64,000 bases of DNA. Source: Escherichia coli (GTDB taxonomy: Bacteria; Pseudomonadota; Gammaproteobacteria; Enterobacterales; Enterobacteriaceae). The position numbers were made by a program, and so were the translations under genes. The stretch is taken from the NCBI RefSeq assembly GCF_001677475.2, contig NZ_CP015229.1. The stretch is one strand, 5' to 3'. Shown here piece after piece: positions 6,417 to 57,514 of the stretch. Under the pieces are notes generated by a model. It had not been told where the DNA came from and did no database searches. It worked only from the letters and a program-made list of their open reading frames with translations. Numbering within the stretch: position 1 is the stretch's first letter; the number at the start of each line of letters is the position of its first letter.

Positions 6417-7109
6417 ATGCAGTCAATAACACCTCCATTAATTGCCGTTATTGGTAGCGATGGTTCAGGCAAGTCAACGGTGTGTGAACATCTCATTACC
6501 GTTGTCGAAAAATATGGTGCTGCCGAAAGAGTTCATTTAGGAAAACAGGCCGGAAATGTCGGTCGTGCAGTGACAAAATTACCGTTGATGGGAAAATCCT
6601 TACATAAAACAATTGAACGAAATCAGGTGAAAACAGCAAAAAAATTGCCTGGCCCTGTTCCGGCGCTGGTAATTACAGCGTTTGTCGCCCGTCGCTTACT
6701 GCGCTTTCGTCATATGCTTGCCTGTCGTCGTCGCGGGTTAATTGTTCTAACCGACCGTTATCCTCAGGACCAAATTCCTGGCGCTTACGATGGTACGGTG
6801 TTCCCACCTAACGTTGAAGGTGGTCGTTTTGTCTCATGGCTGGCAAGCCAGGAACGTAAAGCGTTTCACTGGATGGCGAGCCATAAACCTGATCTGGTCA
6901 TCAAACTCAATGTCGACCTTGAAGTTGCCTGCGCGCGTAAACCCGACCATAAACGGGAATCGCTGGCGAGGAAGATTGCCATAACGCCACAGTTAACCTT
7001 TGGTGGTGCACAACTGGTTGATATCGACGCCAATCAGCCACTGGAAAAGGTGCTGGTTGATGCAGAAAAAGCGATTACGGATTTTATGATCGCGCGTGGT
7101 TATCACTAG
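6417..7109 (+). CDS. yghT: P-loop NTPase / kinase-like ATP-binding protein (230 aa)
   Basis: Walker [17 protein letters not shown] and ARKPDH motifs; third paralog, divergently transcribed. Confidence 0.85.
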
Positions 7110-7157
7110 TCAAAAATGGAAATGCCCGATCGCCAGGACCGGGCATTTTCAGGAAGG

Positions 7158-8657
7158 TTAAATCAACTGCAATGCTATCCAGTACAACCCACCAGAAAGA
7201 AAAATCGCCGCCGGTAAAGTAAACACCCACGCCATCAGGATGCTGGTTACCGTTTTACGCTGTAACCCACCGCCGTCCACCACCATCGTCCCTGCTACCG
7301 CAGACGAGAGGACGTGTGTTGTGGAGACGGGCATCCCAATATAACTGGCAAGGCCGATAGACACTGCCGCCGTCATTTGTGCCGCCATGCCTTGCGCATA
7401 CGTCATGCCGCGCTTACCAATCTTCTCACCGATGGTCATCGCTACACGACGCCAGCCAATCATGGTGCCAATGCCGAGCGCCAGAGCTACTGCCATGATG
7501 ATCCACACCGGAGCGTACTCAATGGTGCTTAACATATCGCTGCGCAGTTTTTTCAGCAGGTTCTGGTCTTCTTTACTGACGCCTGGCAGTTTCGCCAGCT
7601 TCGCGGAGGTATCAGAGATGCACAGCATAATGCGGCGCAGCTGGCTGCGCTGACTCACGCTTAACGGCTCGTAACTTTCCATATTGCCTGGCAGCATCGT
7701 TTTAACGCGCGCAATCGCATCAAAGGTATTTGCCGGATGACAGTGAAACTCCGTCACTTGCGCGCCATCAGTCGATGCCGCAGGCAATGGAGGTTCCATC
7801 GTAATCAACTTCTGCGGCAGTTCAGGATGCTGTTGCAGGTAGTGTTCGAAGTTGGTGACGGCATCGCGGGTACGGGTAATTTCATAGCCGGACGCGTTCA
7901 TATTGACGACGAAGCCAGCAGGGGCAATCCCCACCAGTACCAGCATCACCAGGCCGATCCCTTTCTGCCCGTCGTTAGCGCCGTGCGAAAACGCCACGCC
8001 CGCAGCGGAAACAATCAGCGCAATACGCGTCCAGAATGGCGGCTTACGTTTGCCTTTTTTCTTTTTGCGATCTTCCGGAATGCGGTGAATACGGTCACGC
8101 TTTTTCGTCCCGCTCCAGAAACGGCGCAGCAGGAAAATCAGACCACCCGCAATGACCAGGCCGACGATAGGGGAAACAATCAGCGAGGAGAAAATTTTGG
8201 TCACTTCACGCAGGTTTAACGCATCCATCACCGATGAGCCGGTTAACAGCGCGTTGGTTAAACCGATGCCGATAATTGCACCAATCAAGGTGTGCGAACT
8301 GGAGGCCGGTAAACCAAAGAACCACGTTCCCAGGTTCCAGATAATCGCCGCCAGCAGCATGGAAAAGACCATCGCCAGACCGTGGGTTGACCCCATATTC
8401 AGCAACAAATCGGTTGGCAACATATGGACAATGGCATAGGCAACGCTAAGTCCGCCCAATAACACGCCAAAAAAATTAAAAAATGCCGCCATCACCACAG
8501 CAAGTTGTGGTTGCATGGCACGAGTATAAATAACGGTTGCCACCGCATTCGCCGTGTCATGAAAACCATTGATTGCTTCGTAGAACAACACAAATGCCAG
8601 AGCAAGTAATAACAAAAGCCCTGTGTATATATCAAGGCCAACAAATAAATTTAGCAT
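7158..8657 (-). CDS. pitB: Low-affinity inorganic phosphate transporter (PiT family, 499 aa)
   Basis: PiT-family membrane protein with internal K/R-rich cytoplasmic loop; adjacent to gss as in K-12. Confidence 0.9.
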
Positions 8658-8898
8658 ATATTAGATTACGCCATTTTGAATTTACGAACGGACGCATTAT
8701 CAGTGACTTTAACGGCGTGGGCAAAGTGAAATATCATTTTTTAACGATAAAAAGAGTGTTATTTCTTGTGTATCAGACAATAAGCATTCATTCAAAACCT
8801 TTAGAATTAATCAAAACATAGCTATTCCACTGGTTAATACATTCACATATGAAATAAATAAATATTGGAACATATAAATATTGAATATTTTGATTAAT

Positions 8899-8933
8899 CC
8901 CCGCACTGATTATTCTTCATAATCAGTGCGGGG
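8899..8933 (-). terminator. Perfect 15-bp-stem hairpin 16 bp downstream of gss
   Basis: ccccgcactgattat / ataatcagtgcgggg inverted repeat with 5-nt loop. Confidence 0.5.
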
Positions 8934-8948
8934 TTGCTACAACATGTA

Positions 8949-10808
8949 TTACTCTTTCACCACAATTAACGGTTCAATATCACTCTCTTTTTTAATGACC
9001 AGTGATTCATCACCGCGCAAACACGTCCCACCGTAGTTGCCGCCAACGGTGAAGGTACATACCTGAATGTATTTACCGTCCACTTTCGGCAAACACCACA
9101 GTTGCTGATAGATGTTTTTCTGCTCGGCAAATTTACCGCTGGTTTTGTCCAGCACCTCTTCATGATGGCTGACGAGGTCGATGTTACTGCCACAGCGACC
9201 GGCGATCGGTTTCACTGCGTAACCTGTTTTTACCAGTTCATCATTAACAGTGAAATCGGTATCCAGCAGGTAGCGATGGTGCGGGAACAGCGACCAGAGG
9301 ATCGGCAGAATCGCTTTGTTGCCGGGGATCACTGTCCACAGAGGTTCAAAGACCAGCACTTCCGGGCGCAGCAATACGTCGATAAGACGCACTTCATTTT
9401 GCGGATGACCGGTACGGATCGGCACCGCAGCAAACTCACGGTCGCTAACTTCACGAATCTGATCAAACGCGGTTTCCCACGCCCAGGTTTTCCACACGCA
9501 GTTAACCAGTCGCCCTTCCCCATCAATCAGTTGCCCGGCAGCATCCCAGCCCAGTTCATCCAGCCCGCGCAAGATACGCGTTTCAAAGCCCGCCTGGTGC
9601 AGCGCCTGCTCCATAAACTGCGCGTGATAGTTTTCCTCGATATCTTTGTCCTGCATGATATGGACAAACGGACGTGCACGACTGTGTTTCCAGGCACCAG
9701 CCAGTTCGTTAATCAGCCCTTCCGCCGGATTGAAGCCGTTGCCTTTATAGCCCTGCTCCGCCCAACGTTCGAGGATCAAGCCAGCTTCGGTATGACAGGA
9801 GGCGGAGTCGGCGTTGTATTCGTAGACCTTCAGGCCACGCTCATCCATGCAGAAATCCATACGACCGGTGATCATATGGTGACGGCGACGCTGCCAGGAG
9901 AGACGCAAACGTGGCCAGAGGATTTTCGGAATGTCGAACAGCGCCAGCAGGTTGTCATCTTTTAGCACCTTGTCGGTTGCGTGAAGATACATCAGGTGCA
10001 GCTCGTTGGTGGCTTTAATCAGCTCCTGCTCGGCGCTCTCGGTAATGGTGTAGTAATGATACGGATCCTGATTGATCACCTGACCGTTGGCCTGCACATA
10101 GGCGTTTTGCAGCGGATCTTTTTCATCCAGCCATTTACCGTCAAACTGGCCTTTGTTTTCCAGACGCGCTCCGCTGATTTTCAGCAGCTCGCCTGCAATT
10201 TCCGGCTGCGGTAAGCTGTATTCAGTATCTTCCGTCTGGATCATCCAGCCCAGAATGGTGGTGTCATCAAAAGTGTCTTTAAGGGTATAGCAGCCGTTTT
10301 CGACCACCATCTCCAGCTCGCGCGTCCACTGTTGTCCTTGCGGCAACGGGGAATGAATCACGTTCTGTTCCGCAATACGGACTTTGTTGCCATGCAATTG
10401 GGTAATGATGGCGACATGGCCGGTGTCTTTAAATTCACCGCCTTTATCCCAGATAAGAAGCGCACCCGCGACCGGCGCACGCGGCGAGCCGTTAGGAAAT
10501 GCCTGCAATGGCAGGATGTTGTCATTAACCACTTCACGCAGGAAGCGCAGCGAGAAAATCTCCCACGCCATACCCACGTCAGTGAAGACCACACCGTAGT
10601 TCAGAAAGAGAAAACGGCGAGCAAATTCAACGCATTGCCATTTGTGGCCCATATATTCGTCGTCGATATAGCTACGGAATACGGCGTCATCTTCGTATTC
10701 CTGCGGATCGAGAGAACTGTAATCTGAAGAGTAGATTGCTACCCCACCTGGGGCGTAGCCCAATAATGTCCCGAACGGGGCATCCTGGCTGGTCGTTCCT
10801 TTGCTCAT
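8949..10808 (-). CDS. gss: Bifunctional glutathionylspermidine synthetase/amidase (619 aa)
   Basis: Begins MSKGTTSQDAPFGTLLGYAPGGVAIYSSDYSS; N-terminal CHAP-type amidase plus C-terminal ATP-grasp synthetase. Confidence 0.95.
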   Translation of the reverse strand: MSKGTTSQDAPFGTLLGYAPGGVAIYSSDYSSLDPQEYEDDAVFRSYIDDEYMGHKWQCVEFARRFLFLNYGVVFTDVGMAWEIFSLRFLREVVNDNILPLQAFPNGSPRAPVAGALLIWDKGGEFKDTGHVAIITQLHGNKVRIAEQNVIHSPLPQGQQWTRELEMVVENGCYTLKDTFDDTTILGWMIQTEDTEYSLPQPEIAGELLKISGARLENKGQFDGKWLDEKDPLQNAYVQANGQVINQDPYHYYTITESAEQELIKATNELHLMYLHATDKVLKDDNLLALFDIPKILWPRLRLSWQRRRHHMITGRMDFCMDERGLKVYEYNADSASCHTEAGLILERWAEQGYKGNGFNPAEGLINELAGAWKHSRARPFVHIMQDKDIEENYHAQFMEQALHQAGFETRILRGLDELGWDAAGQLIDGEGRLVNCVWKTWAWETAFDQIREVSDREFAAVPIRTGHPQNEVRLIDVLLRPEVLVFEPLWTVIPGNKAILPILWSLFPHHRYLLDTDFTVNDELVKTGYAVKPIAGRCGSNIDLVSHHEEVLDKTSGKFAEQKNIYQQLWCLPKVDGKYIQVCTFTVGGNYGGTCLRGDESLVIKKESDIEPLIVVKE

Positions 10809-39892: not shown

Positions 39893-40000
39893 GGTATTCC
39901 TTACCGGAGAAATTATAAGCCCAATAACAATACGCCTGTGGCATTGTTCGCTCAAACTTATCGCGAGTGATTTGGCTCACACTCCGGTAAAGATTCCCCA

Positions 40001-43085: not shown

Positions 43086-43194
43086 GGGTAAGACTTTTGC
43101 TAAATTCGCAAAAGACTTTGCACATTTTGCTAATTTCACCGTACCGCTCTGTGACGTACTATAGTCGACAAACGTCTCACCTTGAGGTTAAAAA

Positions 43195-43776
43195 ATGAGC
43201 AACATCCTGATTATCAACGGCGCGAAAAAATTCGCCCACTCCAATGGTCAACTGAACGACACCCTGACCGAAGTCGCGGATGGCACACTGCGCGACCTCG
43301 GGCATGATGTCCGCATCGTTCGCGCCGACAGCGACTACGATGTCAAAGCGGAAGTACAAAACTTTCTCTGGGCTGATGTGGTGATCTGGCAGATGCCAGG
43401 CTGGTGGATGGGCGCGCCGTGGACAGTGAAAAAATACATTGATGATGTATTCACCGAAGGTCACGGGACTCTGTATGCCAGCGATGGTCGTACCCGCAAA
43501 GATCCGTCGAAAAAATACGGCTCCGGCGGCCTGGTACAGGGCAAAAAATATATGCTTTCTCTGACCTGGAACGCACCAATGGAAGCCTTCACCGAAAAAG
43601 ATCAGTTCTTCCACGGCGTTGGCGTTGACGGTGTGTATCTGCCGTTCCATAAAGCAAACCAATTCCTCGGTATGGAACCGCTGCCGACATTTATCGCTAA
43701 TGACGTGATAAAAATGCCTGATGTTCCCCGCTATACTGAAGAATATCGCAAGCATCTTGTGGAAATTTTTGGTTAA
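43195..43776 (+). CDS. mdaB: NADPH:quinone oxidoreductase, flavodoxin-like (193 aa)
   Basis: MSNILIINGAKKFAHSNGQLNDTL. Confidence 0.95.
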   Translation: MSNILIINGAKKFAHSNGQLNDTLTEVADGTLRDLGHDVRIVRADSDYDVKAEVQNFLWADVVIWQMPGWWMGAPWTVKKYIDDVFTEGHGTLYASDGRTRKDPSKKYGSGGLVQGKKYMLSLTWNAPMEAFTEKDQFFHGVGVDGVYLPFHKANQFLGMEPLPTFIANDVIKMPDVPRYTEEYRKHLVEIFG

Positions 43777-43806
43777 CTAGAGCTCAGGCTTTAGAAGGAG
43801 TTAACC

Positions 43807-44121
43807 ATGCTTACCGTAATCGCAGAAATCCGTACTCGTCCTGGTCAACATCACCGTCAGGCGGTATTGGATCAGTTTGCTAAAATCGTTCCAACCGTAC
43901 TGAAGGAAGAAGGTTGCCACGGCTATGCGCCGATGGTGGATTGCGCTGCTGGCGTGAGTTTCCAGTCTATGGCGCCGGACTCTATCGTGATGATTGAGCA
44001 GTGGGAAAGCATCGCGCATCTTGAAGCGCACTTGCAGACCCCGCACATGAAAGCGTACAGCGAGGCCGTAAAAGGCGATGTGCTGGAGATGAATATCCGC
44101 ATCCTGCAACCGGGGATTTAA
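43807..44121 (+). CDS. ygiN: Quinol monooxygenase, ABM domain (104 aa)
   Basis: MLTVIAEIRTRPGQHHRQAVLDQF. Confidence 0.95.
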   Translation: MLTVIAEIRTRPGQHHRQAVLDQFAKIVPTVLKEEGCHGYAPMVDCAAGVSFQSMAPDSIVMIEQWESIAHLEAHLQTPHMKAYSEAVKGDVLEMNIRILQPGI

Positions 44122-44130
44122 CATTCCTGA

Positions 44131-44158
44131 AAAGAGGCCGGTGTTGCTACCGGCCTCA
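44131..44158. terminator. Terminator hairpin at the left island junction (between ygiN and the island regulator gene)
   Basis: gaggccggt-gttgct-accggcctc; T-run on the minus strand. Confidence 0.6.
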
Positions 44159-44165
44159 GGTCAGA

Positions 44166-45053
44166 TTAGCCATTCTTTCTTCCCGTTTTCAAACCCCGAT
44201 GGAAATCGTTAATTCGCTTAATGGTTTTAACCGCACGCTGCGGCATCGCGGAAGCCACCGACCAGACAATCATTTCCAGGCACAACAATACCGTACCATG
44301 TAGTGGCGTTTTCCCCTTTTCATCCCCGCGCGGAACATGAATCACGATACTGGCGTCTTTGCTAAAACGTGAATCCAGCGCGTTTGTCAGCAAAATAACA
44401 GGGATCCCCAGCCGCCTCGCCTCACGAAGCGTTGTCAGCCCTTCCCGGTGCGCAGATTTTTGCGCCATCATGATCAGAACATCGCCACGTTGAAGCGCGA
44501 TCAGTTGCTCGGCAAGGCCAATACCCGTACGGTTTAGTGCCGTGGCAGGCAAACCTATGCGGTTGAATAGTCGTGCGGTATAGTCCGCCAGAATACCCGA
44601 AGCGCCAATGCCAAAAATTGCGACTTGCCGTGCCTGCACCAACAACGCTACCGCTTGCGCAAGCGCGTGGCGGTTTTCAGGCTCTGACAGGACATTACAA
44701 GTATACAAATGCCCTTCAAGAACAAAGTCGATTGCGGTGTTAACATCGCTCGTCAAGTTACTCACCGTCGTAGACATCTTTTCGCTGGAACTAAGGGCTG
44801 GACCAAGCCACTGTTCCAGAGTGCGTCTCAGATCACGCAGCCCGGCAAACCCCAGAGCCTGTATAGCCCTGATAACTGTGGCATCGGAAGTGTTCAACGT
44901 GGCCGCAATTTCCATCGCCGTTTGCTCGAGTACCACTTCACGATGCTCATTAATGTAGCTTGCGACAGCTCTTAACCCAGGCGTTAACTGACTCGCGCGA
45001 GTGCGAAAACGCTCACCATAAATATCAACCCGCGTTTTGTCTTTCTGGATCAT
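44166..45053 (-). CDS. RpiR/MurR-family transcriptional regulator, HTH plus SIS domain (295 aa); candidate regulator of the adjacent iron-uptake genes
   Basis: N-terminal HTH (TAMEIAATLNTSDATVIRAIQALGFAGLRDL) and C-terminal sugar-isomerase-type domain; start overlaps the upstream SBP gene stop (4 nt). Confidence 0.8.
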   Translation of the reverse strand: MIQKDKTRVDIYGERFRTRASQLTPGLRAVASYINEHREVVLEQTAMEIAATLNTSDATVIRAIQALGFAGLRDLRRTLEQWLGPALSSSEKMSTTVSNLTSDVNTAIDFVLEGHLYTCNVLSEPENRHALAQAVALLVQARQVAIFGIGASGILADYTARLFNRIGLPATALNRTGIGLAEQLIALQRGDVLIMMAQKSAHREGLTTLREARRLGIPVILLTNALDSRFSKDASIVIHVPRGDEKGKTPLHGTVLLCLEMIVWSVASAMPQRAVKTIKRINDFHRGLKTGRKNG

Positions 45054-45997
45054 TTAGCCTCCGGTAGAGGTCGTCCCGCAATTTGTGATTGTATCTGCGC
45101 AGCCATCAGCCCCAGAGATGCAAAGGAGTTAGAAATCGCCTCTTCACGAGAAATCAGCACATAGCGCCCGGAACGACAGGCCGTCAGAAACTGACACCAT
45201 CCCGGCATGACTTTTTCCATTGCTGCCAGCTCATCCTGAGGTTTACCACCGGTGTCACCGCGCCAGGTTGCAAAAACAAAATCGGCATCCAGTTCAGGTA
45301 AACGCTCTGCGCTCACATCCATTCGCCCACCTTCAGGAATGCTCTCAATCAGCGGCGGAAAGCGAAAACCAGCATCGCGTAATACCCGCCCCAGCGAATG
45401 ATAGCTATGCATCACATTAATTTTTCCCTGATTTGCCTGAATCACCGATACCGTTATTTTTTGGCTGTCCAGCGTCGCCTTCAGCGCATTGATTTGTGCC
45501 TGATAGCGGCGTTCAAGTATCGCCAGCTGCGACTGCGTTCCTGTAAGTTCTGCCAGCTTGCGGTAGATTTCTGGCGCGCCTCCTTTGAGATGATCAATGC
45601 TCACCGTGGGCGCAATTTTTTCCAGTTGTTCAATGGGCGTATTACGGGTCGGTTCTGTGATGATCAGGTCAGGCTTTGCCGCCACAATCGCTTCAATATC
45701 AATATCAGCGGTGCCAATAAAAGCGATCGATGAATTATCAAAGTCGACACCTGTCAATAACGCGCCTGATCGAATGAAATGGCTACCGTCAGGCCGGGTT
45801 CGCCCGTGGCTGGCGACAGGAGGTACACCGAGCTCAATCAGAGGAATAGTGATATCAAGATCGTGTAAAGAGACAATTCTCTTTGGATGAGCAGGAACAG
45901 TGACTTTGCGCCCTAAATCATCAGTAAAGACCTGAACAGGTTCTGTCGCGCGGGCAAAGAATGACAACAGTATCAGCAGAGAAAAAAATAAACGCAT
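45050..45997 (-). CDS. Periplasmic iron-siderophore ABC substrate-binding protein, FecB/FhuD-like
   Basis: Signal peptide MRLFFSLLILLSFFARA; cluster-8 SBP architecture. Start at Met22 of track ORF to avoid overlap with the upstream permease. Confidence 0.8.
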   Translation of the reverse strand: MRLFFSLLILLSFFARATEPVQVFTDDLGRKVTVPAHPKRIVSLHDLDITIPLIELGVPPVASHGRTRPDGSHFIRSGALLTGVDFDNSSIAFIGTADIDIEAIVAAKPDLIITEPTRNTPIEQLEKIAPTVSIDHLKGGAPEIYRKLAELTGTQSQLAILERRYQAQINALKATLDSQKITVSVIQANQGKINVMHSYHSLGRVLRDAGFRFPPLIESIPEGGRMDVSAERLPELDADFVFATWRGDTGGKPQDELAAMEKVMPGWCQFLTACRSGRYVLISREEAISNSFASLGLMAAQIQSQIAGRPLPEAK

Positions 45998-46007
45998 ATA
46001 ACTCCCA

Positions 46008-47057
46008 TTAAAAACTGTTCCTGCGCTGCCAGAGCAGTAGCAAAAAGAATGGTCCACCAATCAATGAAATAATGATTCCGGCAGGCAGTTGCAAAGGCAA
46101 AAAAGCCAAACGACCAATGCTATCCGCCAGGATGACTAACAACGCCCCCGATACGGCGCTCCCCAGCAGTAATGTCGTCTGCCCGCCACGTAGAATAAAA
46201 CGTGATATATGGGGTGCTATCAATCCGACAAAACCGATGTTACCAACACACGAAACGCAGACGGCTGTCAGGATTATTGGTGCGGCGACACGTAACAACG
46301 CCAGACGAGAACTATTCACCCCTAACCCGGTTGCAACCTGATGACCAAGCAGAGCGATATCCGCCGTCCTGGCGGTGAACAGCAATAAAAGAGCGGCTGG
46401 CAACATCCAACAGGCTGAAATACCGACTAACATCCAGTTAGCTGCATGCAGGCTTCCCGATAACCACATCAATGCAGTTTGTACATCTCGAACATCTGCA
46501 GTGGTCATAAATACACCGATACCGGCGGCGAAAAACCAGGAAACACCAATACCAATCAGAACAAATCGCGGGCGGGAAATATCGCGTGCACAAAAAATCA
46601 CGATTAAAGCCACCAACAAGCCACCAGCAAGACCAGCCACTGGACGCCAGAACATTCCCAGCATTGGAAACTGGAAGATCAGCCACAGCACCGCCACGCT
46701 ACATCCTTCTTTGACGCCGATTAAACCAGGATCGGCAAGGCCGTTACGCGCAATGGATTGCATCGCGGCCCCCGCCATACCTAACATGGCTCCGCATAGC
46801 AATGCCATGATGACTCTCGGCAAGCGAATATCCTGCACAATATAACGTGCGTCTGTGCTTACGTTTTCTGGAGCAAACAACGCTCGTCCTACTTCCGATG
46901 CCGGGACAGAAAAAGAACCATGCATCAGACCGAATATCAGTATTCCAACCGCAAACAGAAACAGCCCACCAAGCAACACCAGATTTTTAGGGCGTACCAG
47001 TGTCGAAAACTTACCAACACGTAGTGGACGTAGCCCGACGTTCATTATCCGACTCAT
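46008..47057 (-). CDS. Iron-siderophore ABC permease, FecCD family (349 aa)
   Basis: Polytopic membrane protein with FecCD-type glycine-rich helices. Confidence 0.85.
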   Translation of the reverse strand: MSRIMNVGLRPLRVGKFSTLVRPKNLVLLGGLFLFAVGILIFGLMHGSFSVPASEVGRALFAPENVSTDARYIVQDIRLPRVIMALLCGAMLGMAGAAMQSIARNGLADPGLIGVKEGCSVAVLWLIFQFPMLGMFWRPVAGLAGGLLVALIVIFCARDISRPRFVLIGIGVSWFFAAGIGVFMTTADVRDVQTALMWLSGSLHAANWMLVGISACWMLPAALLLLFTARTADIALLGHQVATGLGVNSSRLALLRVAAPIILTAVCVSCVGNIGFVGLIAPHISRFILRGGQTTLLLGSAVSGALLVILADSIGRLAFLPLQLPAGIIISLIGGPFFLLLLWQRRNSF

Positions 47058-48037
47058 TTGAACATCCTCGTCGCCATAATGACAAAAACAGGCGCACCAA
47101 CTAACGCCGTCATGACACCGGTCGCTAACTCATGGGGCGTGAAAAGCGTCCGAGCAATAATATCTGCCAGTAATAACAAAAGCGCGCCGACACAAGCTGA
47201 AAGAGGGAGCAGAACGCGCAGATCCGCTGATACCAGACGCCTGACAATCTGCGGTACTAGCAGGCCGACAAAACCAATGGGGCCAGCAATCGATACGGCT
47301 GCGCCACAGAGCAACGCGATCGCAAGCAGAGTGAATGTTCGCGTGCGGAGTACCGAGACGCCCAGCCCCTGCGCCATGCGATCACCCAGTGCCAACATGT
47401 TAAGAGAGGGCGCAAGGTAAATGGCTAACACAACCCCCCCCAGAGAAAACCAGGCGGACGTACCCAGCGTCGCCCAATCCTGCCCCGCTAAATCACCTGC
47501 TAGCCATGTCCGCATCGCCAGCAGTGTTTGTTCGTCAAGAATCAGGATTGCAGCCGTTATTGAGGACACGAACGCCGATAGCGCCACGCCGCATAAAGTA
47601 ACTTTCATTGGCGTTAACCCTGAACGCCCTGCGGAGGAAAGCAGCAATATCAACAGGAACAATAACGCGCCCCCCGTAGATGCCAGCAGTGGGCGTCCAA
47701 CCGGAAAGGCCAGTCCAAGCGCACTGGCGGCAACGACAGCAAGAGCGGCTCCGGCATTTAAGCCTAAAATATGTGGCTCCCCCAATGGGTTACGAATGAC
47801 AGCCTGCAACAAAGCACCAGCAACTCCAAGAGAAGCACCGGTAAGCAATGCTGCCGCTAAACGCGGCAAACGGAGTCTTACAATTACGTTGTGATCGAAG
47901 TTTTGCGGTTCAAAATGAAGAAATGCCTGCAACACCGTTTGTGGTGCAATAAATCGGGCACCAATCCCTGGATATACCACGCATCCCACCAGCAGTAAGG
48001 CGAGGAAAATTACAGTAACCAGCCCTGTGCGCATCAT
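47054..48037 (-). CDS. Iron-siderophore ABC permease, FecCD family (327 aa)
   Basis: Paralogous to the adjacent permease; 4-nt overlaps on both sides. Confidence 0.85.
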   Translation of the reverse strand: MMRTGLVTVIFLALLLVGCVVYPGIGARFIAPQTVLQAFLHFEPQNFDHNVIVRLRLPRLAAALLTGASLGVAGALLQAVIRNPLGEPHILGLNAGAALAVVAASALGLAFPVGRPLLASTGGALLFLLILLLSSAGRSGLTPMKVTLCGVALSAFVSSITAAILILDEQTLLAMRTWLAGDLAGQDWATLGTSAWFSLGGVVLAIYLAPSLNMLALGDRMAQGLGVSVLRTRTFTLLAIALLCGAAVSIAGPIGFVGLLVPQIVRRLVSADLRVLLPLSACVGALLLLLADIIARTLFTPHELATGVMTALVGAPVFVIMATRMFK

Positions 48038-48843
48038 ACTTTTTCTACACCACGAAACGGCATGAAGAACGGCTTTCCCGTCAGAGGATTTATTGATGCG
48101 TGAACATCAACGTCAAAGACAGCTTTTACCAGCTCAGGCGTGCAATGCTCCCCCTCATTCAACACACGCACCACTTTCCCCTGGCGTAAAAATATCAACG
48201 TATCGCCATAATTGACGGCAAAATTCAGATCATGCAACACCACGACGACTGTACGCCCGTGATGACGCGTTAAGTCATGTAATAACTCAAGAATTTCAAC
48301 CTGATAACGTAAATCAAGCCAGGTTGTGGGTTCATCCAGCAGGATATAAGGCGTCTTTTGCGCCAACACCATCGCAATCCAGCAACGCTGGCGCTGCCCA
48401 CCAGAGAGTTTTTCAACCGGTAAATGTGCAAACTCCTGCGTACCGGTTAATTTCAGGGCCTCTTCTACCGCCTGCTCGTCGGCGTCGCTCCATTGACGTA
48501 TGAAATTTTGCCAGGGAAAACGCCCACGCGACACCAGTTCATAAACGGTTAAGCCCTCCGGCAATAATGGCGACTGCGGCAAGATCCCAAGTCTACGGGA
48601 TAACGCTTTCGTTGGTTGCTCGTGAATCGCTTTACCATCCAGCAATATAGAGCCGCCCATAGGCTGCAAGATACGTGCAATGGTGCTGAGCAACGTCGAC
48701 TTTCCACAGCCGTTTGCCCCAACCAGAACGGTCATTTTTTCTGTGGGAACGGAGAAAGAAACACCATCAACAATGATCTTCTTGTGATACCCGGCAGAAA
48801 CATTGTCGAGGATCAGCCCCTGCCCTTTTGCGTTATGTGCCAC
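48034..48843 (-). CDS. Iron-siderophore ABC ATPase, FecE/FepC-like (269 aa)
   Basis: Walker A GANGCGKST, signature LSGGQRQR, Walker B ILLDEP. Confidence 0.9.
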   Translation of the reverse strand: MAHNAKGQGLILDNVSAGYHKKIIVDGVSFSVPTEKMTVLVGANGCGKSTLLSTIARILQPMGGSILLDGKAIHEQPTKALSRRLGILPQSPLLPEGLTVYELVSRGRFPWQNFIRQWSDADEQAVEEALKLTGTQEFAHLPVEKLSGGQRQRCWIAMVLAQKTPYILLDEPTTWLDLRYQVEILELLHDLTRHHGRTVVVVLHDLNFAVNYGDTLIFLRQGKVVRVLNEGEHCTPELVKAVFDVDVHASINPLTGKPFFMPFRGVEKV

Positions 48844-49216
48844 GTGTACGCCAACTTAATCAAAGACAAACAAAAATAAAACTCATTCTCTTTTGAGAGT
48901 TTGACGCCACAAAATGTAGTAGTCAAGAAGTTAAAATCCATACAAAAACAAGGTAAATAACAGGTGAAATATTTTTAAAGATAAAAATAAAATCATTAAA
49001 TATTAATAAATTACCATCAATTAAATTGCATTAACCTCTCATAAAAACACATGTAGCAATTTTTTGTTATTTCTCATTTACTACTACATTACCGCATGGT
49101 TGAATGATTCTCAATTACATATCCGATGGTGAAATAACAAACGGATAGTGCTTAGTGAGCAACAAGAAACAATTTTCACTCACGACAATCCGTGAGTTTT
49201 TGGGATAACAGACTAA
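48844..49216. promoter_or_regulatory. AT-rich divergent promoter region of the iron-uptake island with candidate Fur boxes
   Basis: 373-bp AT-rich spacer; ttgaatgattctcaattac and aaaatcattaaatattaat resemble the Fur-box consensus. Confidence 0.45.
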
Positions 49217-51358
49217 ATGGCTAAGTTCACACCTTCATTCTCAGGAATCAAAGGTCGGGCGCTCTTTTCACTGCTCTTTGCAGCACCGATGATTCATGCA
49301 ACCGACACTGCAACGACCAAAGATGGCGAAACAATCACTGTTACAGCGGATGCAAATACCGCAACTGAGGCGACCGATGGTTATCAACCTCTGAGCACCT
49401 CCACGGCGACATTAACCGATATGCCGATGCTGGATATCCCGCAAGTGGTCAATACGGTTAGCGATCAGGTTCTGGAAAATCAGAATGCGACGACGCTGGA
49501 TGAGGCACTTTATAACGTCAGTAACGTGGTACAGACCAATACATTAGGCGGAACTCAGGACGCCTTTGTACGTCGTGGGTTTGGTGCTAACCGGGATGGC
49601 TCCATCCTGACCAACGGTCTGCGAACCGTACTTCCTCGCAGCTTCAACGCTGCAACAGAACGTGTGGAAGTGCTAAAAGGCCCGGCCTCCACGCTGTATG
49701 GCATTCTTGATCCTGGCGGACTGATTAACGTCGTGACAAAGCGCCCGGAAAAAACATTCCATGGTTCTGTATCAGCCACGTCCTCCAGTTTTGGCGGAGG
49801 CACTGGGCAACTGGATATCACAGGTCCCATTGAAGGCACTCAGCTGGCATACCGCCTGACGGGGGAAGTGCAGGATGAAGATTACTGGCGGAATTTCGGT
49901 AAAGAGCGCAGCACATTTATTGCCCCATCACTCACCTGGTTTGGTGATAATGCAACAGTAACCATGCTCTATTCACATCGGGATTATAAAACGCCGTTCG
50001 ATCGTGGAACGATTTTCGACCTTACGACGAAACAGCCCGTAAACGTTGATCGAAAAATACGTTTCGACGAACCGTTTAATATTACAGATGGTCAGTCCGA
50101 TCTGGCGCAACTCAACGCAGAATATCATCTCAATAGCCAGTGGACAGCGCGCTTTGATTACAGCTACAGCCAGGATAAATACAGCGATAATCAGGCTCGT
50201 GTTACCGCGTATGATGCAACGACAGGAACGCTGACACGGCGTGTTGATGCAACTCAGGGATCTACCCAGCGTATGCATTCTACTCGTGCGGATCTACAAG
50301 GGAATGTTGATATTGCTGGATTCTATAATGAGATTCTGGGTGGGGTGTCATATGAATATTATGATCTTCTGCGGACAGATATGATCCGCTGTAAAAACGC
50401 TAAAGATTTCAATATCTACAACCCTGTTTATGGCAATACCAGCAAATGCACAACGGTCTCGGCGTCGGACAGCGATCAGACGATCAAACAAGAGAGCTAC
50501 TCAGCATATGCGCAAGATGCGCTCTATCTGACCGATAACTGGATTGCCGTCGCTGGGATCCGCTATCAGTATTACACGCAGTATGCGGGTAAAGGCCGTC
50601 CTTTTAATGTCAATACTGACAGCCGCGATGAACAATGGACGCCCAAACTGGGGTTGGTCTACAAACTGACGCCATCGGTATCCTTATTTGCCAATTATTC
50701 GCAAACATTTATGCCGCAATCGTCAATTGCCAGCTACATTGGCGATCTTCCACCGGAATCATCTAATGCTTACGAAGTCGGGGCAAAAGTCGAGCTGTTC
50801 GATGGTATAACCGCAGATATTGCGCTGTTTGATATCCATAAACGTAACGTGTTGTATACCGAAAGTATTGGTGATGAAACCATCGCCAAAACGGCAGGCC
50901 GCGTTCGTTCAAGAGGGGTAGAAGTCGACCTTGCGGGAGCATTAACTGAAAACATTAATATCATTGCCAGCTACGGCTATACCGATGCTAAGGTTCTGGA
51001 AGATCCTGATTATGCAGGGAAACCATTGCCGAATGTTCCTCGTCATACCGGTTCGCTATTCCTGACCTATAACATTCATAACATGCCAGGCAATAACACA
51101 CTGACGTTTGGCGGTGGTGGACATGGCGTAAGCCGTCGTTCGGCAACCAATGGGGCTGACTATTATCTGCCAGGCTATTTCGTTGCCGATGCCTTCGCCG
51201 CATACAAAATGAAATTGCAGTATCCGGTCACACTGCAATTAAACGTCAAAAACCTATTTGATAAAACGTATTACACCTCTTCCATCGCCACAAATAATCT
51301 GGGGAATCAGATTGGCGATCCGCGTGAAGTGCAATTCACGGTGAAAATGGAATTTTGA
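49217..51358 (+). CDS. TonB-dependent outer membrane siderophore receptor (713 aa)
   Basis: TonB box ETITVTA after the signal peptide; plug domain and C-terminal aromatic terminus (VKMEF). Confidence 0.9.
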   Translation: MAKFTPSFSGIKGRALFSLLFAAPMIHATDTATTKDGETITVTADANTATEATDGYQPLSTSTATLTDMPMLDIPQVVNTVSDQVLENQNATTLDEALYNVSNVVQTNTLGGTQDAFVRRGFGANRDGSILTNGLRTVLPRSFNAATERVEVLKGPASTLYGILDPGGLINVVTKRPEKTFHGSVSATSSSFGGGTGQLDITGPIEGTQLAYRLTGEVQDEDYWRNFGKERSTFIAPSLTWFGDNATVTMLYSHRDYKTPFDRGTIFDLTTKQPVNVDRKIRFDEPFNITDGQSDLAQLNAEYHLNSQWTARFDYSYSQDKYSDNQARVTAYDATTGTLTRRVDATQGSTQRMHSTRADLQGNVDIAGFYNEILGGVSYEYYDLLRTDMIRCKNAKDFNIYNPVYGNTSKCTTVSASDSDQTIKQESYSAYAQDALYLTDNWIAVAGIRYQYYTQYAGKGRPFNVNTDSRDEQWTPKLGLVYKLTPSVSLFANYSQTFMPQSSIASYIGDLPPESSNAYEVGAKVELFDGITADIALFDIHKRNVLYTESIGDETIAKTAGRVRSRGVEVDLAGALTENINIIASYGYTDAKVLEDPDYAGKPLPNVPRHTGSLFLTYNIHNMPGNNTLTFGGGGHGVSRRSATNGADYYLPGYFVADAFAAYKMKLQYPVTLQLNVKNLFDKTYYTSSIATNNLGNQIGDPREVQFTVKMEF

Positions 51359-51400
51359 TCAAAAAAGCCCGGTATACACTTGTATACCGGGCTATGTTTT
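51359..51400. terminator. Bidirectional rho-independent terminator at the right island junction (receptor gene / parE)
   Basis: agcccggtataca...tgtataccgggct perfect inverted repeat flanked by A-run and T-run. Confidence 0.7.
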
Positions 51401-51421
51401 ATTCTTCTGGCGGGAGGATTA

Positions 51422-53317
<1,896 letters not shown>

Positions 53318-53342
53318 TTAAGTTAGCAATTCGAGTTGATCG

Positions 53343-53924
53343 TCAGAGATGGTGCAGACCAAGAAAATCGACGATCGGGTTGAAATAATCTTCGAAGCCC
53401 GTGAATGCGTGGTTGCCGCCTTCTATGACAGTCTGGCGGCAGGAAGCGTAGTACGCCACCGCCTGGCGGTAATCCAGCACTTCATCTCCCGTCTGTTGCA
53501 GCAGCCAGATCAAATCCGGCGCTTCCAGCGGGTCAATCTGCATGACTTTGAGATCGTAAATATGGCGTGACTCTAGCACATATTGCTGCCCGGTGTAGGG
53601 GTTCTCGTTCTGACCGAGATAGTCCGTCAGCAGTTCAAACGGGCGTACCGCCGGGTTTACCACCACTGCGGGCAGCATAAAACATTGCGACAACCAGGTG
53701 GCGTAATATCCCCCCAGTGACGAACCGACAATACCCAGCGAATCGCCGCCATGTTCCAGGACAATGGATTCCAGCAGTTCTGCCGCGTCGGAAGGATACG
53801 GCGGCAACTGCGGAATGATCATCTCTACGTCAGGGTGATGTTCCGCCAACCAGTTTTTTAACAAGCTCGCTTTTGCAGAGCGCGGCGAGCTGTTGAAACC
53901 GTGTAAATAAAGAAGCGTAGACAT
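53343..53924 (-). CDS. yqiA: Alpha/beta-fold esterase (193 aa)
   Basis: [19 protein letters not shown]; GSSLGG nucleophile elbow. Confidence 0.93.
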
Positions 53925-54751
53925 CAGTAGCCTTCTGAAGCGGTATCAGGTTGGAAACGTGTGTCCGCCAGGCGATGCACCTCGGTGGTCAGCGTGCCAT
54001 CAGCATGTAACTCGAGAGTACGCCAGCCGGGCGCGATGGTGTCCAGCGTAAAGTTGGAACAGTGCGGCTTAAACTGCACACAGGTCGACGGTGTTGCCAG
54101 CAGGCGGCGACCGTTCCAGTCGAGATCCAGCTCCTGATGAATATGACCGCACAGCAAGTATTTGACGTGCGGAAACTTCGCCAGCACGGTATCCAGTTCG
54201 CCCGCATTACGCAGGCTGTGTTGGTCAAGCCAACTACAACCCGCAGGTAGCGGATGATGATGCAGCAGCAGCAACGTATGGCGTTCTGGCGCATCGGCCA
54301 GTTTACGTTCCAGCCACTCAAGCTGAAACTCGCTCAGCTCACCGTGCGGCACGCCAAACACCTGGCTATCCAGCAACAGGATTTGCCATTGCTCACCAAT
54401 AAACACCCGCTTCGCCGGGGAGATACCCGCATCCTGTAACGCGCTGTACATCGCGGGCTGGAAATCGTGGTTGCCCGGCAGCCAGACGCAGGGCGCACGA
54501 AAACTTGCGATGCCTTCAGCGAAATGCTGATAGGCCGCAGAGGATTGATCCTGCGCTAAATCACCTGTCGCGACAATCAGGTCGAATTCGTGCTGGTGTG
54601 GCCGAATCGCCTCCAGCACCGCCTGGTAGCTTTCCCAGGTGTTTACCCCTAACAGGGCTTCGTGCTTTTGCGCAAACAGGTGAGTGTCGGTAATTTGTAA
54701 AATCCTGACTCTGGCCTCACCAGCCAGAGGAAGGGTTAACAGGCTTTCCAA
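53924..54751 (-). CDS. cpdA: 3',5'-cyclic AMP phosphodiesterase (275 aa)
   Basis: Metallophosphoesterase motifs (DTH, GDL, GNHD). Confidence 0.95.
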
Positions 54752-54775
54752 ATGGTGTCCTTAGGTTTCACGACG

Positions 54776-55198
54776 CTAGTAAACCGGAATCGCCATCGCT
54801 CCATGTGCTAAACAGTATCGCAACCAGTCCGCTAGAAACTGATTAATTTGATGCTTTTCGTCGCGTTGATGCAACTTTTTATTAGGATAATCATACCGCG
54901 CTTTGAAGCGAAAAATCTGCTGGCTTGAACACACTTCAGCCACCATCGCGTCATGATACAGACGCACCGTCATTGACGGAAGGCTCCAGTAACTGATAGC
55001 GGGCGCAGTCTGTTCTATTGTCACCAGGGTAGTGTATCGGGTCGATTCCACAATCGTTAGCCGATATTGTGCGTTTGCCACCTGATAGCTTACAGTTTCG
55101 CCGGGTGCGTCATTGCGCGGCAACAAACGGCGCAATTGTGAAAAGTTCATCTCGCACAGGCGCATCATTTCAGGAAAGTCAGGTGTGTAACGCTTCAT
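54776..55198 (-). CDS. yqiB: DUF1249 protein (140 aa)
   Basis: Length and position match K-12 yqiB. Confidence 0.9.
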
Positions 55199-55828
55199 TT
55201 ATGCCCACTCATTTTTTAACGCTTGATGATGCAGCTGCAGCCATTGCAAAGCGATGACCGACGCTGCGTTGTCGATTTTCCCCTCTTCTACCCACTGGTA
55301 TGCCTGTTCCCGGCTTACCACATGAACGCGAATATCTTCGTTTTCATCAGCCAGACCGTGAATACCGCTTGCGGTCGTGGCGTCCACTTCGCCCACCATA
55401 ATTGACGAACGCTCACTGGTGCCCCCCGGGCTTGCCAGGAAACTTAACACCGGTTTGGTCCGTTTGACTATCAGTCCCGCCTCTTCAATCGCTTCGCGAC
55501 GGGCAACATCTTCCACACTTTCACCCTCTTCAATCATCCCGGCAACCATCTCCAGTAGCCAGGGGGTTTCGCTGGTGTCGTACGCGGCAATCCGAATCTG
55601 CTCAATCAGCACAACTTCATCACGCACTGGGTCAAAGGGTAGCAAGACTGCGGCGTGACCGCGCTCAAAAATTTCCCGCCGTACCTCATGACTCATTTGC
55701 CCGTTGAATAGACGATGACGAAATCTATAAAGATCTAATGAAAAAAAGCCGCGATAAAGTGTTTCTCGTGCAATAATTTCTACATCGTTTTTGCCAAATG
55801 TAACGGGCAGGTTGTCTGGCTTAAGCAT
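55199..55828 (-). CDS. nudF: ADP-ribose pyrophosphatase, Nudix hydrolase (209 aa)
   Basis: Nudix box ...REAIEEAGL.... Confidence 0.95.
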
Positions 55829-56032
55829 TGTTAATGTCCTGGCACTAATAGTGAATTAAATGTGAATTTCAGCAACGTTTGACTGCCGTTTGAGCAGTCA
55901 TGTGTTAAATTGAGGCACATTAACGCCCTATGGCACGTAACGCCAACCTTTTGCGGTAGCGGCTTCTGCTAGAATCCGCAATAATTTTACAGTTTGATCG
56001 CGCTAAATACTGCTTCACCACAAGGAATGCAA
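55829..56032. promoter_or_regulatory. Divergent nudF / tolC promoter region
   Basis: Intergenic region upstream of tolC; regulated by MarA/SoxS/Rob and EvgA/PhoP in E. coli (established knowledge, sites not mapped here). Confidence 0.4.
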
Positions 56033-57514
56033 ATGAAGAAATTGCTCCCCATTCTTATCGGCCTGAGCCTTTCTGGGTTCAGTTCGTTGAGCCAGGCCGA
56101 GAACCTGATGCAAGTTTATCAGCAAGCACGCCTTAGTAACCCGGAATTGCGTAAGTCTGCCGCCGATCGTGATGCTGCCTTTGAAAAAATTAATGAAGCG
56201 CGCAGTCCATTACTGCCACAGCTAGGTTTAGGTGCAGATTACACCTATAGCAACGGCTACCGCGACGCGAACGGCATCAACTCTAACGCGACCAGTGCGT
56301 CCCTGCAGTTAACTCAATCCATTTTTGATATGTCGAAATGGCGTGCGTTAACGCTGCAGGAAAAAGCAGCAGGGATTCAGGACGTCACGTATCAGACCGA
56401 TCAGCAAACCTTGATCCTCAACACCGCGACCGCTTATTTCAACGTGTTGAATGCTATTGACGTTCTTTCCTATACACAGGCGCAAAAAGAAGCGATCTAC
56501 CGTCAATTAGATCAAACCACCCAACGTTTTAACGTGGGCCTGGTAGCGATCACCGACGTGCAGAATGCCCGCGCACAGTACGATACCGTGCTGGCGAACG
56601 AAGTGACCGCACGTAATAACCTTGATAACGCGGTAGAGCAGCTGCGCCAGATCACCGGTAACTACTATCCGGAACTGGCGGCGCTGAATGTCGAAAACTT
56701 TAAAACCGACAAACCGCAGCCGGTTAACGCGCTGCTGAAAGAAGCCGAAAAACGCAACCTGTCGCTGTTACAGGCACGCTTGAGCCAGGACCTGGCGCGC
56801 GAGCAAATTCGCCAGGCGCAGGATGGTCACTTACCGACTCTGGATTTAACGGCTTCTACCGGGATTTCTGACACCTCTTATAGCGGTTCGAAAACCCGTG
56901 GTGCCGCTGGTACCCAGTATGACGATAGCAATATGGGCCAGAACAAAGTTGGCCTGAGCTTCTCGCTGCCGATTTATCAGGGCGGAATGGTTAACTCGCA
57001 GGTGAAACAGGCACAGTACAACTTTGTTGGTGCCAGCGAGCAACTGGAAAGCGCGCATCGTAGCGTCGTGCAAACCGTACGTTCCTCCTTCAACAACATT
57101 AATGCTTCTATCAGTAGTATTAACGCCTACAAACAAGCCGTAGTTTCCGCTCAAAGCTCATTAGACGCGATGGAAGCGGGCTACTCGGTCGGTACGCGTA
57201 CCATTGTTGATGTGTTGGATGCGACCACCACGCTGTACAACGCCAAGCAAGAGCTGGCGAATGCGCGTTATAACTACCTGATTAATCAGCTGAATATTAA
57301 GTCAGCCCTGGGTACGTTGAACGAGCAGGATCTGCTGGCACTGAACAATGCGCTGAGCAAACCGGTTTCCACTAACCCGGAAAACGTTGCCCCGCAAACG
57401 CCGGAACAGAATGCTATTGCTGATGGTTATGCACCTGATAGCCCGGCACCCGTCGTTCAGCAAACATCCGCACGCACTACCACCAGTAACGGTCATAACC
57501 CTTTCCGTAACTGA
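56033..57514 (+). CDS. tolC: Outer membrane efflux channel TolC (493 aa)
   Basis: MKKLLPILIGLSLSGFSSLSQAENLMQVYQQARLSNPELRKS. Confidence 0.97.
   Translation: MKKLLPILIGLSLSGFSSLSQAENLMQVYQQARLSNPELRKSAADRDAAFEKINEARSPLLPQLGLGADYTYSNGYRDANGINSNATSASLQLTQSIFDMSKWRALTLQEKAAGIQDVTYQTDQQTLILNTATAYFNVLNAIDVLSYTQAQKEAIYRQLDQTTQRFNVGLVAITDVQNARAQYDTVLANEVTARNNLDNAVEQLRQITGNYYPELAALNVENFKTDKPQPVNALLKEAEKRNLSLLQARLSQDLAREQIRQAQDGHLPTLDLTASTGISDTSYSGSKTRGAAGTQYDDSNMGQNKVGLSFSLPIYQGGMVNSQVKQAQYNFVGASEQLESAHRSVVQTVRSSFNNINASISSINAYKQAVVSAQSSLDAMEAGYSVGTRTIVDVLDATTTLYNAKQELANARYNYLINQLNIKSALGTLNEQDLLALNNALSKPVSTNPENVAPQTPEQNAIADGYAPDSPAPVVQQTSARTTTSNGHNPFRN

Follow-up and report, generated by a model that had tools for sequence, protein, structure and literature searches.

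FitR, a repressor of the fit iron-uptake island of Escherichia coli, is an RpiR-family protein with a non-canonical sensor domain

Introduction

The main question raised by this locus is why an operon for iron uptake should end in a gene for a regulator with a SIS sensor domain, and what that sensor recognises. Siderophore uptake is elsewhere placed under substrate-responsive regulators of the AraC type, such as PchR, YbtA and AlcR, or under the ECF signalling of FecIR, and the inducers of these systems are known. These regulators are either activators or sigma/anti-sigma pairs, and their folds are unrelated to that of FitR, the protein discussed here. FitR, unlike PchR, YbtA, AlcR and FecIR, is a repressor that carries a SIS sensor. 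Its gene lies in a 64-kb stretch of E. coli DNA, the whole of which was analysed and is referred to below as the window. The original prediction held that an RpiR-type regulator is unusual for an iron-uptake cluster, which we judge to be right, and that the SIS domain points to a sugar or sugar-phosphate ligand, which is the claim that most of the following analysis bears on.

The fit system of E. coli strain i484 was reportedly described by Ouyang and Isaacson in Infection and Immunity in 2006. The gene, family, operon position and regulatory role of fitR are already known from work published between 2006 and 2008. Their paper of 2008 in Open Microbiol J named the six genes as fitA (receptor), fitB (ATPase), fitC and fitD (permeases), fitE (binding protein) and fitR, and described a helix-turn-helix at the N terminus of FitR with a sugar-isomerase domain at its C terminus (PMC2593036). 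The receptor FitA is without functional data according to PMC9409007. The remark in PMC12928451 that fit takes up Fe2+/Co2+/Cd2+ has an untraceable source and is not relied on here.

Results and Discussion

The locus is the fit island

The features of the island, with the evidence for each, are as follows.

44122..51425, no strand: 7,304-bp fit island, lying between ygiN and parE (K-12 junction, BLAST)
44135..44154, minus strand: hairpin GGCCGGT-N6-ACCGGCC followed by TCTTTTC, directly after the fitR stop (read from the sequence)
44166..45053, minus strand: fitR, 295-aa HTH_6 + SIS repressor (ORF, Pfam, RefSeq and primers)
45050..45997, minus strand: fitE, periplasmic substrate-binding protein, Peripla_BP_2 (match to 3BE5/3BE6; qPCR primers)
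46008..47057, minus strand: fitD, FecCD-family permease (profiles and primers; the RefSeq start is 12 nt downstream)
47054..48037, minus strand: fitC, FecCD-family permease (profiles and primers)
48034..48843, minus strand: fitB, ABC ATPase closest to FecE (profiles and primers)
48844..49216, no strand: fitA-fitB intergenic region with two divergent promoters (promoter primers; DNA shifted in EMSA, PMC2593036)
49217..51358, plus strand: fitA, TonB-dependent siderophore receptor (TIGR01783, 369 bits, above cut-off; qPCR primers)
51366..51393, no strand: bidirectional terminator hairpin between fitA and parE, 12-bp stem (scan of both strands)

The identification of the locus as the fit system (fitA / fitBCDE-fitR) is secure. 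All 18 of the 18 published fit primers (PMC2593036, Table 2) map in the window with 0–3 mismatches, in the expected genes, orientations and order. The cloning and qPCR primers for fitR lie at 44169-44186, 44863-44886, 44927-44950, 44979-44996 and 45031-45053, and the promoter primers at 48837-48860 and 49174-49195. The FitE of the window, for which the start (315 aa) was taken from RefSeq, is near-identical to PDB entries 3BE5/3BE6 (E 2e-195), and the solved proteins nearest to FitA are FetA, FoxA/CntO and FhuA. The composition is also that of fit, with a TonB-dependent receptor gene divergent from genes for an ATPase, two permeases, a substrate-binding protein and a regulator. Compared with the published i484 FitR, the locus, gene order and chromosomal site are the same and the differences are only allelic, comprising three mismatches in the 5' primer and T7/Y12 in place of V7/F12; the FitR of the window shares 98% identity with the allele that is common in E. 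coli (P0002).

Homology to K-12 ends at 44121 and restarts at 51426 (BLAST of the K-12 junction). In K-12 only 51 bp separate the two homology ends, and ygiN and parE are adjacent in the annotation. The island is flanked by E. coli genes, parC-ygiS-ygiV-ygiW-qseBC-mdaB-ygiN on one side and parE-yqiA-cpdA on the other, and both site and size agree with the “GR22 ygiN..parE, 7193 bp, fit operon” of a 2026 report (PMC12928451). Of 5426 complete E. coli genomes, 1870 carry the island at a coverage of at least 80%, and the lineage of the window has at most 99.0% identity to any complete E. coli genome.

A 373-bp intergenic region separates fitA from the divergent fitBCDE-fitR operon. At the other end of the operon, the fitE-fitR junction reads ...GGAGGCTAAATGATCC, in which the four nucleotides ATGA are common to the fitR ATG (45053-45051) and the fitE TGA (45052-45050); a Shine-Dalgarno sequence, GGAGG, lies 4 nt upstream of the fitR ATG. 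This junction agrees with the predicted position of the regulator gene as last in the operon, overlapping the binding-protein gene by 4 nt, and as read from the sequence fitR stands last in fitBCDER and is translationally coupled. We infer its co-transcription with the transporter genes from this gene anatomy together with the published auto-repression. The hairpin that follows fitR is the likely terminator of fitBCDER.

Repression of fit by FitR and Fur

Control of the adjacent genes, another part of the original prediction, had been documented in 2008 with reporter, EMSA and fur/fitR mutant data (PMC2593036). Over-expression of FitR cuts fitA-lacZ and fitB-lacZ about 3-fold, and knockout of fitR lifts both fusions, with complementation bringing repression back and qRT-PCR in agreement. 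In EMSA, purified FitR shifts a fragment of the fitA-fitB intergenic region and is competed by the unlabelled fragment (PMC2593036). Both divergent promoters are repressed by FitR, which thereby limits its own synthesis and is an auto-repressor. The reporter experiments that had been suggested for this locus were essentially carried out in the same 2008 study, with the exception of varying the sugar supply (PMC2593036).

Derepression amounts to 23-fold when fur is mutated, 2.2-fold when fitR is mutated and 52-fold when both are; the repression by Fur and that by FitR are independent, with Fur-Fe2+ the stronger repressor (PMC2593036). The prediction that expression combines iron with a second, metabolite signal holds in so far as there are two independent repressors, and a metabolite signal acting on FitR is plausible only.

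Since the published repression is modest, about 2–5 fold, FitR may be a simple feedback damper. In the strict form of this explanation FitR would have no small-molecule effector at all, the SIS domain would serve only for oligomerisation, and the protein would act constitutively against transporter overshoot after release by Fur. The reporter values in PMC2593036 are compatible with such a role, as repression is weak and alike in iron-rich (about 1.35-fold) and iron-poor (1.5-fold) medium, and so is the literature of the approximately 18 years since 2008, in which no effector or inducer of FitR is reported. The evidence from the pocket, considered below, weighs on the other side.

FitR is an RpiR-family protein by fold

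The two domains of FitR were located as follows.

44811..45011, minus strand: HTH_6 DNA-binding domain, residues 15-81 (Pfam PF01418, E 1.3e-9)
44313..44642, minus strand: SIS sensor domain, residues 138-247 (Pfam PF01380, E 1.3e-13)

The Pfam search bears out the assignment of FitR to the HTH plus SIS regulators, and RefSeq labels the orthologue of fitR a “MurR/RpiR family transcriptional regulator”. In the NCBIfam profile search no named equivalog reaches its curated cut-off with FitR. The top match, NF010701, scores 77.5 bits against a cut-off of 920, and the AlsR, HexR, MurR, PRK11337 and PRK11557 models score 30-75 bits against cut-offs of 296-408. As all of these scores are below threshold, FitR is treated as a member of the MurR/RpiR family that is an orthologue of no named regulator.

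An AlphaFold model of FitR was generated from an alignment of 15 orthologues and has a mean pLDDT of 64.6, with values of 75-92 over the SIS domain and below 50 in the HTH region. The C-terminal SIS domain is predicted to adopt a flavodoxin-like alpha/beta fold. The best PDB matches to the model in Foldseek are RccR (8JU9/8K3B), 3SHO, NanR and MurR, and 8JU9, 3SHO, 4IVN and 7EN5 each match with a probability of 1.00. RccR/HexR, central-carbon regulators of Pseudomonas (PDB 8K3B, 8JU9) that also combine HTH_6 with SIS, are the best match by both sequence and fold, although RccR and FitR share only 22% identity and the targets differ, being carbon-metabolism genes for RccR/HexR and a metal importer for FitR. 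E. coli MurR (PDB 7EN5-7) belongs to the same family and is a tetrameric, autoregulating repressor of a divergent promoter region. For the SIS domain the best fold match is 3SHO, a structural-genomics entry for an RpiR SIS domain from Sphaerobacter thermophilus (TM 0.75-0.78). FitR is a member of the RpiR family by fold, and the non-canonical part of it is the sensor.

The SIS pocket lacks most of the phosphate-binding residues

One explanation is that FitR senses a sugar or sugar phosphate derived from a glycosylated or amino-sugar siderophore, in the way that classical RpiR regulators sense MurNAc-6-P, ManNAc-6-P or KDPG. Family membership and the SIS fold speak for it. What marks the phosphosugar-sensing mode is the set of canonical phosphate residues, not membership of the Pfam family, and two loops of the domain carry this set.

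44595..44612, minus strand: SIS loop 1, GIGASG, residues 148-153; S152 aligns to RccR S139 and is invariant in orthologues
44442..44465, minus strand: SIS loop 2, AQKSAHRE, residues 197-204; the canonical SxSGx[ST] is replaced

In RccR of P. aeruginosa the phosphate of KDPG is bound by S139, S183, S185 and S188, and a quadruple Ser to Ala mutant gives no effector response (PMC11014249). E. coli MurR binds the phosphate of MurNAc-6-P through S146, S190 and S192; the family conserves these serines together with H171, mutation of a single residue leads to loss of binding or response, and either S190A or S192A alone abolishes the effector response (PMC9177960). HMMER alignments of FitR with RccR, NanR and the phosphosugar isomerase 5UQI are gap-free across both loops. 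Loop 1 is similar throughout (GFGAS in RccR, GVGAS in NanR, GIGAS in FitR), whereas loop 2 reads SQSGRSKD in RccR, SSSGSTKE in NanR, SNSGETAE in 5UQI and AQKSAHRE in FitR. The residues corresponding to RccR S183, S185 and S188 are A197, K199 and H202, the first two of these positions being those of MurR S190 and S192 in the shared loop-2 motif, and the ligand-contacting H164 of RccR, for which H171 is the conserved family histidine in MurR, is G177 in FitR. FitR retains one of the four phosphate-binding serines of the RccR set, S152, and likewise matches only the first of the three in MurR. The full canonical set, the Ser of GxGxS together with S-x-S-G-x-[ST], is absent from FitR, in which loop 2 runs A-Q-K-S-A-H. 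Among structures, 3SHO also has a non-canonical loop 2 (VSVWRYLRD, where FitR has QKSAHREG), at 22% identity to FitR.

The replacement of loop 2 does not represent decay of the site, since its residues Q198, K199, S200, H202, R203, E204 and G205 are invariant in the 15 orthologues, down to 68% identity. An exhaustive HMMER search supplied 102 full-length representatives (50% clusters), ranging from 71% to 24% identity to FitR, which we aligned. The SxSGx[ST] loop occurs in 0 of the 102. Most of them have a loop of the form AYG[RK]xYxE, and QKSAHREG is found only in the nearest subclade; ten members of the clade containing FitR reach no NCBIfam equivalog. On this alignment there appears to be a large RpiR clade without the canonical loop, which is uncharacterised and is a newly noted lead. 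Residues R161, N174, R175, Q198, K199, S200 and H202 are invariant in FitR and its orthologues and rare in the neighbouring clade. Judged from these residues the FitR pocket would be basic and specific, built around the conserved R161, R175, K199 and H202 and one serine.

These features count against a FitR without an effector: a degenerate canonical ligand site would suit a damper, but among orthologues no part of FitR is conserved more strictly than the pocket loops, and the specific differences from the neighbouring clade fit selection for a ligand rather than decay. We consider an effector-free FitR improbable. The pocket also speaks against the classical sugar phosphate, which is not supported because most of the phosphate-binding residues are missing and mutants of these residues in RccR and MurR lose their response. 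On the other hand S152 is kept, and the basic residues at RccR H148 and R152 are kept as R161 and R165 in FitR; phosphate could be bound non-canonically through K199 and H202. Because the pocket is non-canonical, with one serine and conserved basic residues, the effector is more likely to be an anionic compound, either the imported chelate or a derivative of it, and an anionic ligand for FitR is plausible.

Conservation of the fit module

Orthologues of FitR with 68-89% identity are found in Salmonella, Lelliottia, Kosakonia, Enterobacter, Citrobacter, Raoultella/Klebsiella, Erwinia, Serratia, Sodalis and Tatumella, among others. In Kosakonia, Raoultella, Sodalis and Erwinia the gene order is identical and the flanks are unrelated. 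The regulator is the final gene of the receptor/ABC module in the orthologous loci examined, and its gene overlaps the preceding one by 4 nt or starts 9-12 nt after it. The six-gene fit module travels as a unit through many Enterobacterales.

The gene neighbourhood offers little to a sugar-phosphate effector. No gene for a sugar kinase, PTS component, glycosidase, hydrolase or isomerase is conserved beside the module in the five genera compared, Kosakonia, Raoultella, Sodalis and Erwinia among them, and enterobactin, the glucosylated form of which is salmochelin, is reported as not being the fit substrate, which is otherwise undefined (PMC5907654). Two fit-like variants carry extra genes between those for the binding protein and the regulator. 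In one (L004) these encode a PepSY_TM membrane protein and two distant PstS-like proteins, of the phosphate-binding fold; in the other (L009/L010) they encode two PstS-like proteins, and the receptor gene is co-oriented with the ABC genes. The regulator of L009/L010 is 43% identical to FitR and lies at the operon end in a 70%-GC genome. The PstS-like pairs in these extended operons might hint at a phospho-compound. With one of four phosphate serines, no canonical loop in any of the 102 relatives and no conserved sugar gene, the step from SIS domain to sugar ligand in the original prediction is not supported, and sensing of a sugar or sugar phosphate by FitR is unlikely.

Linkage to fit is not universal among close relatives of FitR, as one with 50% identity (P0124) adjoins no transporter. 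A 38%-identical relative with the loop KSKHHEG is encoded on an integrative element, within a cluster for metal homeostasis (NicO, HupE/UreJ, CsoR-like, BOF). This neighbourhood, and the invariance of H115, C119, H202, H252 and C258 in orthologues, would be in keeping with direct sensing of a metal ion by conserved His/Cys residues of FitR. C119 is however lost in the 43-50% identical relatives, H252 is common to the whole clade, and in the published data the effect of FitR is independent of iron status, with fit still induced by iron chelation in a fitR mutant (PMC2593036). Direct metal sensing is rejected as the main model because of this iron independence, and we regard it as very improbable.

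Promoters and candidate operators

Aligning the receptor-ABC intergenic regions of six genera gives two invariant blocks within otherwise diverged sequence. The block on the fitB side consists of TTGACTACTACA, approximately 18 nt, and GAGAATGAG.T.TATTTTT, and that on the fitA side of TTTACTACTACA, 11 nt, and TTGAATGATTCTCAATTACAT. On the fitB side TTGACT, a 17-nt spacer and CATGAT/CAAACT would plausibly form a sigma-70 promoter, and the fitA side appears to be arranged likewise. A generic promoter and terminator scan was dropped from the promoter model, since it returned fewer promoter-like sites than shuffled sequence; the conserved TTGACT -35 and the hairpin behind fitR both escaped it. Four elements within the blocks are proposed as regulator sites.

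48872..48890, minus strand: Fur-box-like element GAGAATGAGTTTTATTTTT, downstream of the fitB -10; 13/19 to the Fur consensus, conserved across genera
48915..48925, minus strand: candidate FitR operator B, TGACTACTACA, over the fitB -35 (TTGACT, 48921-48926); invariant in six genera
49078..49088, plus strand: candidate FitR operator A, TTACTACTACA, over the -35-like TTTACT of the fitA promoter
49100..49118, plus strand: Fur-box-like element TTGAATGATTCTCAATTAC, over the fitA -10; identical 19-mer in five other genera

Candidate operators A and B are mutually inverted and lie 165 bp apart in the window. The 11-mer T[G/T]ACTACTACA has exactly two occurrences in the 64 kb, both in the fitA-fitB intergenic region. 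As a 9-mer pair, TGTAGTAGT/ACTACTACA, the candidate operators occur as one inverted pair in the promoter region of seven out of seven independent fit-like locus types, including L009 with its 70% GC, and in none of three loci without a fit-like transporter. Chance was rejected as the source of the pair, as a 20-kb locus should hold approximately 0.15 exact hits by chance and the pair is present in every fit-like locus. The spacing of the paired sites is 124-188 bp and, in this small sample, within approximately 0.3 turn of whole helical turns.

The operator half-sites of RccR are TGTAGT/ACTACA (PMC11014249), and the TGTAGTAGT/ACTACTACA pair of the fit promoters resembles them, although the half-sites of RccR are only a few bp apart. 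Because RccR recognises TGTAGT/ACTACA, we take ACTACTACA as the FitR site and the AT-rich boxes as those of Fur. The ACTACTACA elements, with their RccR-like half-sites, are most likely the FitR operators. The two assignments could be swapped, as the conserved TGTAATTGAGAATCATTCAA block also looks like a HexR-type TGTAAT. No textbook Fur box (GATAATGATAATCATTATC, with up to three mismatches) is found in the window, and the L009 equivalent of the Fur-like element on the fitA side, TGACAATCATTCTCA, has 12/14 matches to the 7-1-7 Fur consensus. With only 12-13/19 matches present, the Fur sites were assigned by conservation and not by consensus.

A proposed model for the control of fit

In the model proposed here each fit promoter would carry T[G/T]ACTACTACA over its -35 and then a Fur-like box over -10/+1. 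FitR bound at the ACTACTACA elements would occlude both -35 regions, and as a tetrameric RpiR-type protein it may bridge the two elements by looping, a possibility suggested by the helical-turn spacings and by the tetrameric state of MurR and RccR (PMC11014249, PMC9177960). A ligand in the SIS pocket would release FitR from DNA. Full expression would then be reached only when iron is scarce, with Fur off, and the cell meets the cognate substrate or something formed from it, with FitR off. The logic proposed for fit is like that of the PchR, YbtA, AlcR and FecIR systems, with Fur as the iron signal and a system-specific regulator as the substrate signal.

That fitR encodes a dedicated repressor of the strain-variable fit iron-uptake island, for which this operator and ligand model can be proposed, is in our view very probable. 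A broader reading is put forward only tentatively, as a possibility that we think has the odds against it: proteins of the FitR type may be the first members with a functional anchor in a large branch of RpiR regulators that has lost the phosphate serines, sensing the imported iron chelate or another anion that is not a phosphosugar and repressing by bridging two ACTACTACA operators over the -35 boxes of promoters 124-188 bp apart.

Conclusions

The fit island is routinely listed as a marker of ExPEC and AIEC. In the form first stated, the finding that its operon ends in an RpiR-type regulator has little consequence, and the interest that remains is in the substrate, the effector and the RpiR branch without a phosphate site. 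The candidate operators are precise enough for footprinting and for the design of reporters, and the search for the fit substrate may be helped by those relatives that have PepSY_TM and PstS-like genes as partners. As the sensor of FitR is not a canonical phosphosugar site, screens for its effector should extend beyond sugar phosphates. If the broader reading is true, SIS-domain regulators would gain a new class of effector, and siderophore uptake a substrate-responsive control of the repressor type.

FitR and related regulators

The forward primer of pBAD-fitR1, the published complementing construct, lies at window positions 44979-44996, which is inside the fitR open reading frame and approximately 19 codons past the ATG at 45053. 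The functional product of this construct therefore presumably either lacks the first ~19 residues of FitR or uses a start supplied by the vector. The same ~19 residues are also variable across the orthologues.

Among the FitR-related representatives (P0126-P0269) there is a large branch of HTH_6 plus SIS regulators, comprising 96 representatives with 24-42% identity to FitR. In this branch loop 1 of the SIS domain reads GIGPS, while the canonical phosphate loop SxSGx[ST] is replaced by AYG[RK]xYxE. A solved structure that seems to belong to the branch is PDB entry 3SHO, and none of the 10 members tested reaches the NCBIfam equivalog level.

Sequence features and setting of the fit island

The leader of fitA, which is approximately 100 nt long, contains a feature of symmetry:

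49133-49201: imperfect 26-nt inverted repeat, 73% complementary, with 17 nt separating the arms

The repeat is immediately 5' of the start codon and maps to a weakly conserved portion of the alignment of receptor-ABC intergenic regions from fit-like loci of six genera.

Strand composition is strongly biased at 46001-48000, which covers both permease genes (AT skew +0.30, GC skew -0.12). The skew is accounted for by membrane-protein genes, whose codons are rich in T on the coding (minus) strand; it is not a feature in its own right. The bias in turn generates spurious long antisense reading frames over the permease genes, for example 47421-47894 (+).

Regions 43700-51500 and 51422-57500 were compared with 5426 complete E. 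coli genomes, and the highest identity to the window was only 98.8-99.0%. The core genes parE-tolC came no closer than this, and such a ceiling shows that the window comes from an Escherichia/Shigella lineage that is scarce among complete E. coli genomes.

Two further sites differ between strains. The mqsRA toxin-antitoxin pair, found between ygiS and ygiV in K-12, is absent from the window (39956-40000), as is ygiZ, which lies between qseC and mdaB in K-12 (43086-43194). In strain U1, ygiZ is accompanied at the qseC-mdaB site by a gene of the Hcp family and by a hypothetical gene. Together with fit, these sites give at least three strain-variable insertion points in one short stretch.

Related loci in other genomes

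A FitR relative with 38% identity and the loop KSKHHEG is found in locus L011 (8157-10798), divergent from a cluster of BOF, HupE/UreJ, NicO and CsoR-like genes. The regulator and metal cluster adjoin an integrase and TraI in a mobile element, and provide a further metal-linked setting for this subclade.

Some fit-like operons are extended by genes that separate the regulator from the siderophore-type binding protein:

L004 7007-10004; L009 and L010 8010-9946: two distant PstS-like (PBP_like_2) genes
L004, within 7007-10004: PepSY_TM membrane protein, in the same interval as the PstS-like genes

The PepSY_TM family includes siderophore reductases. The PstS-like and PepSY_TM partners may hint at what is transported, or at a step of iron release missing from the E. 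coli island.
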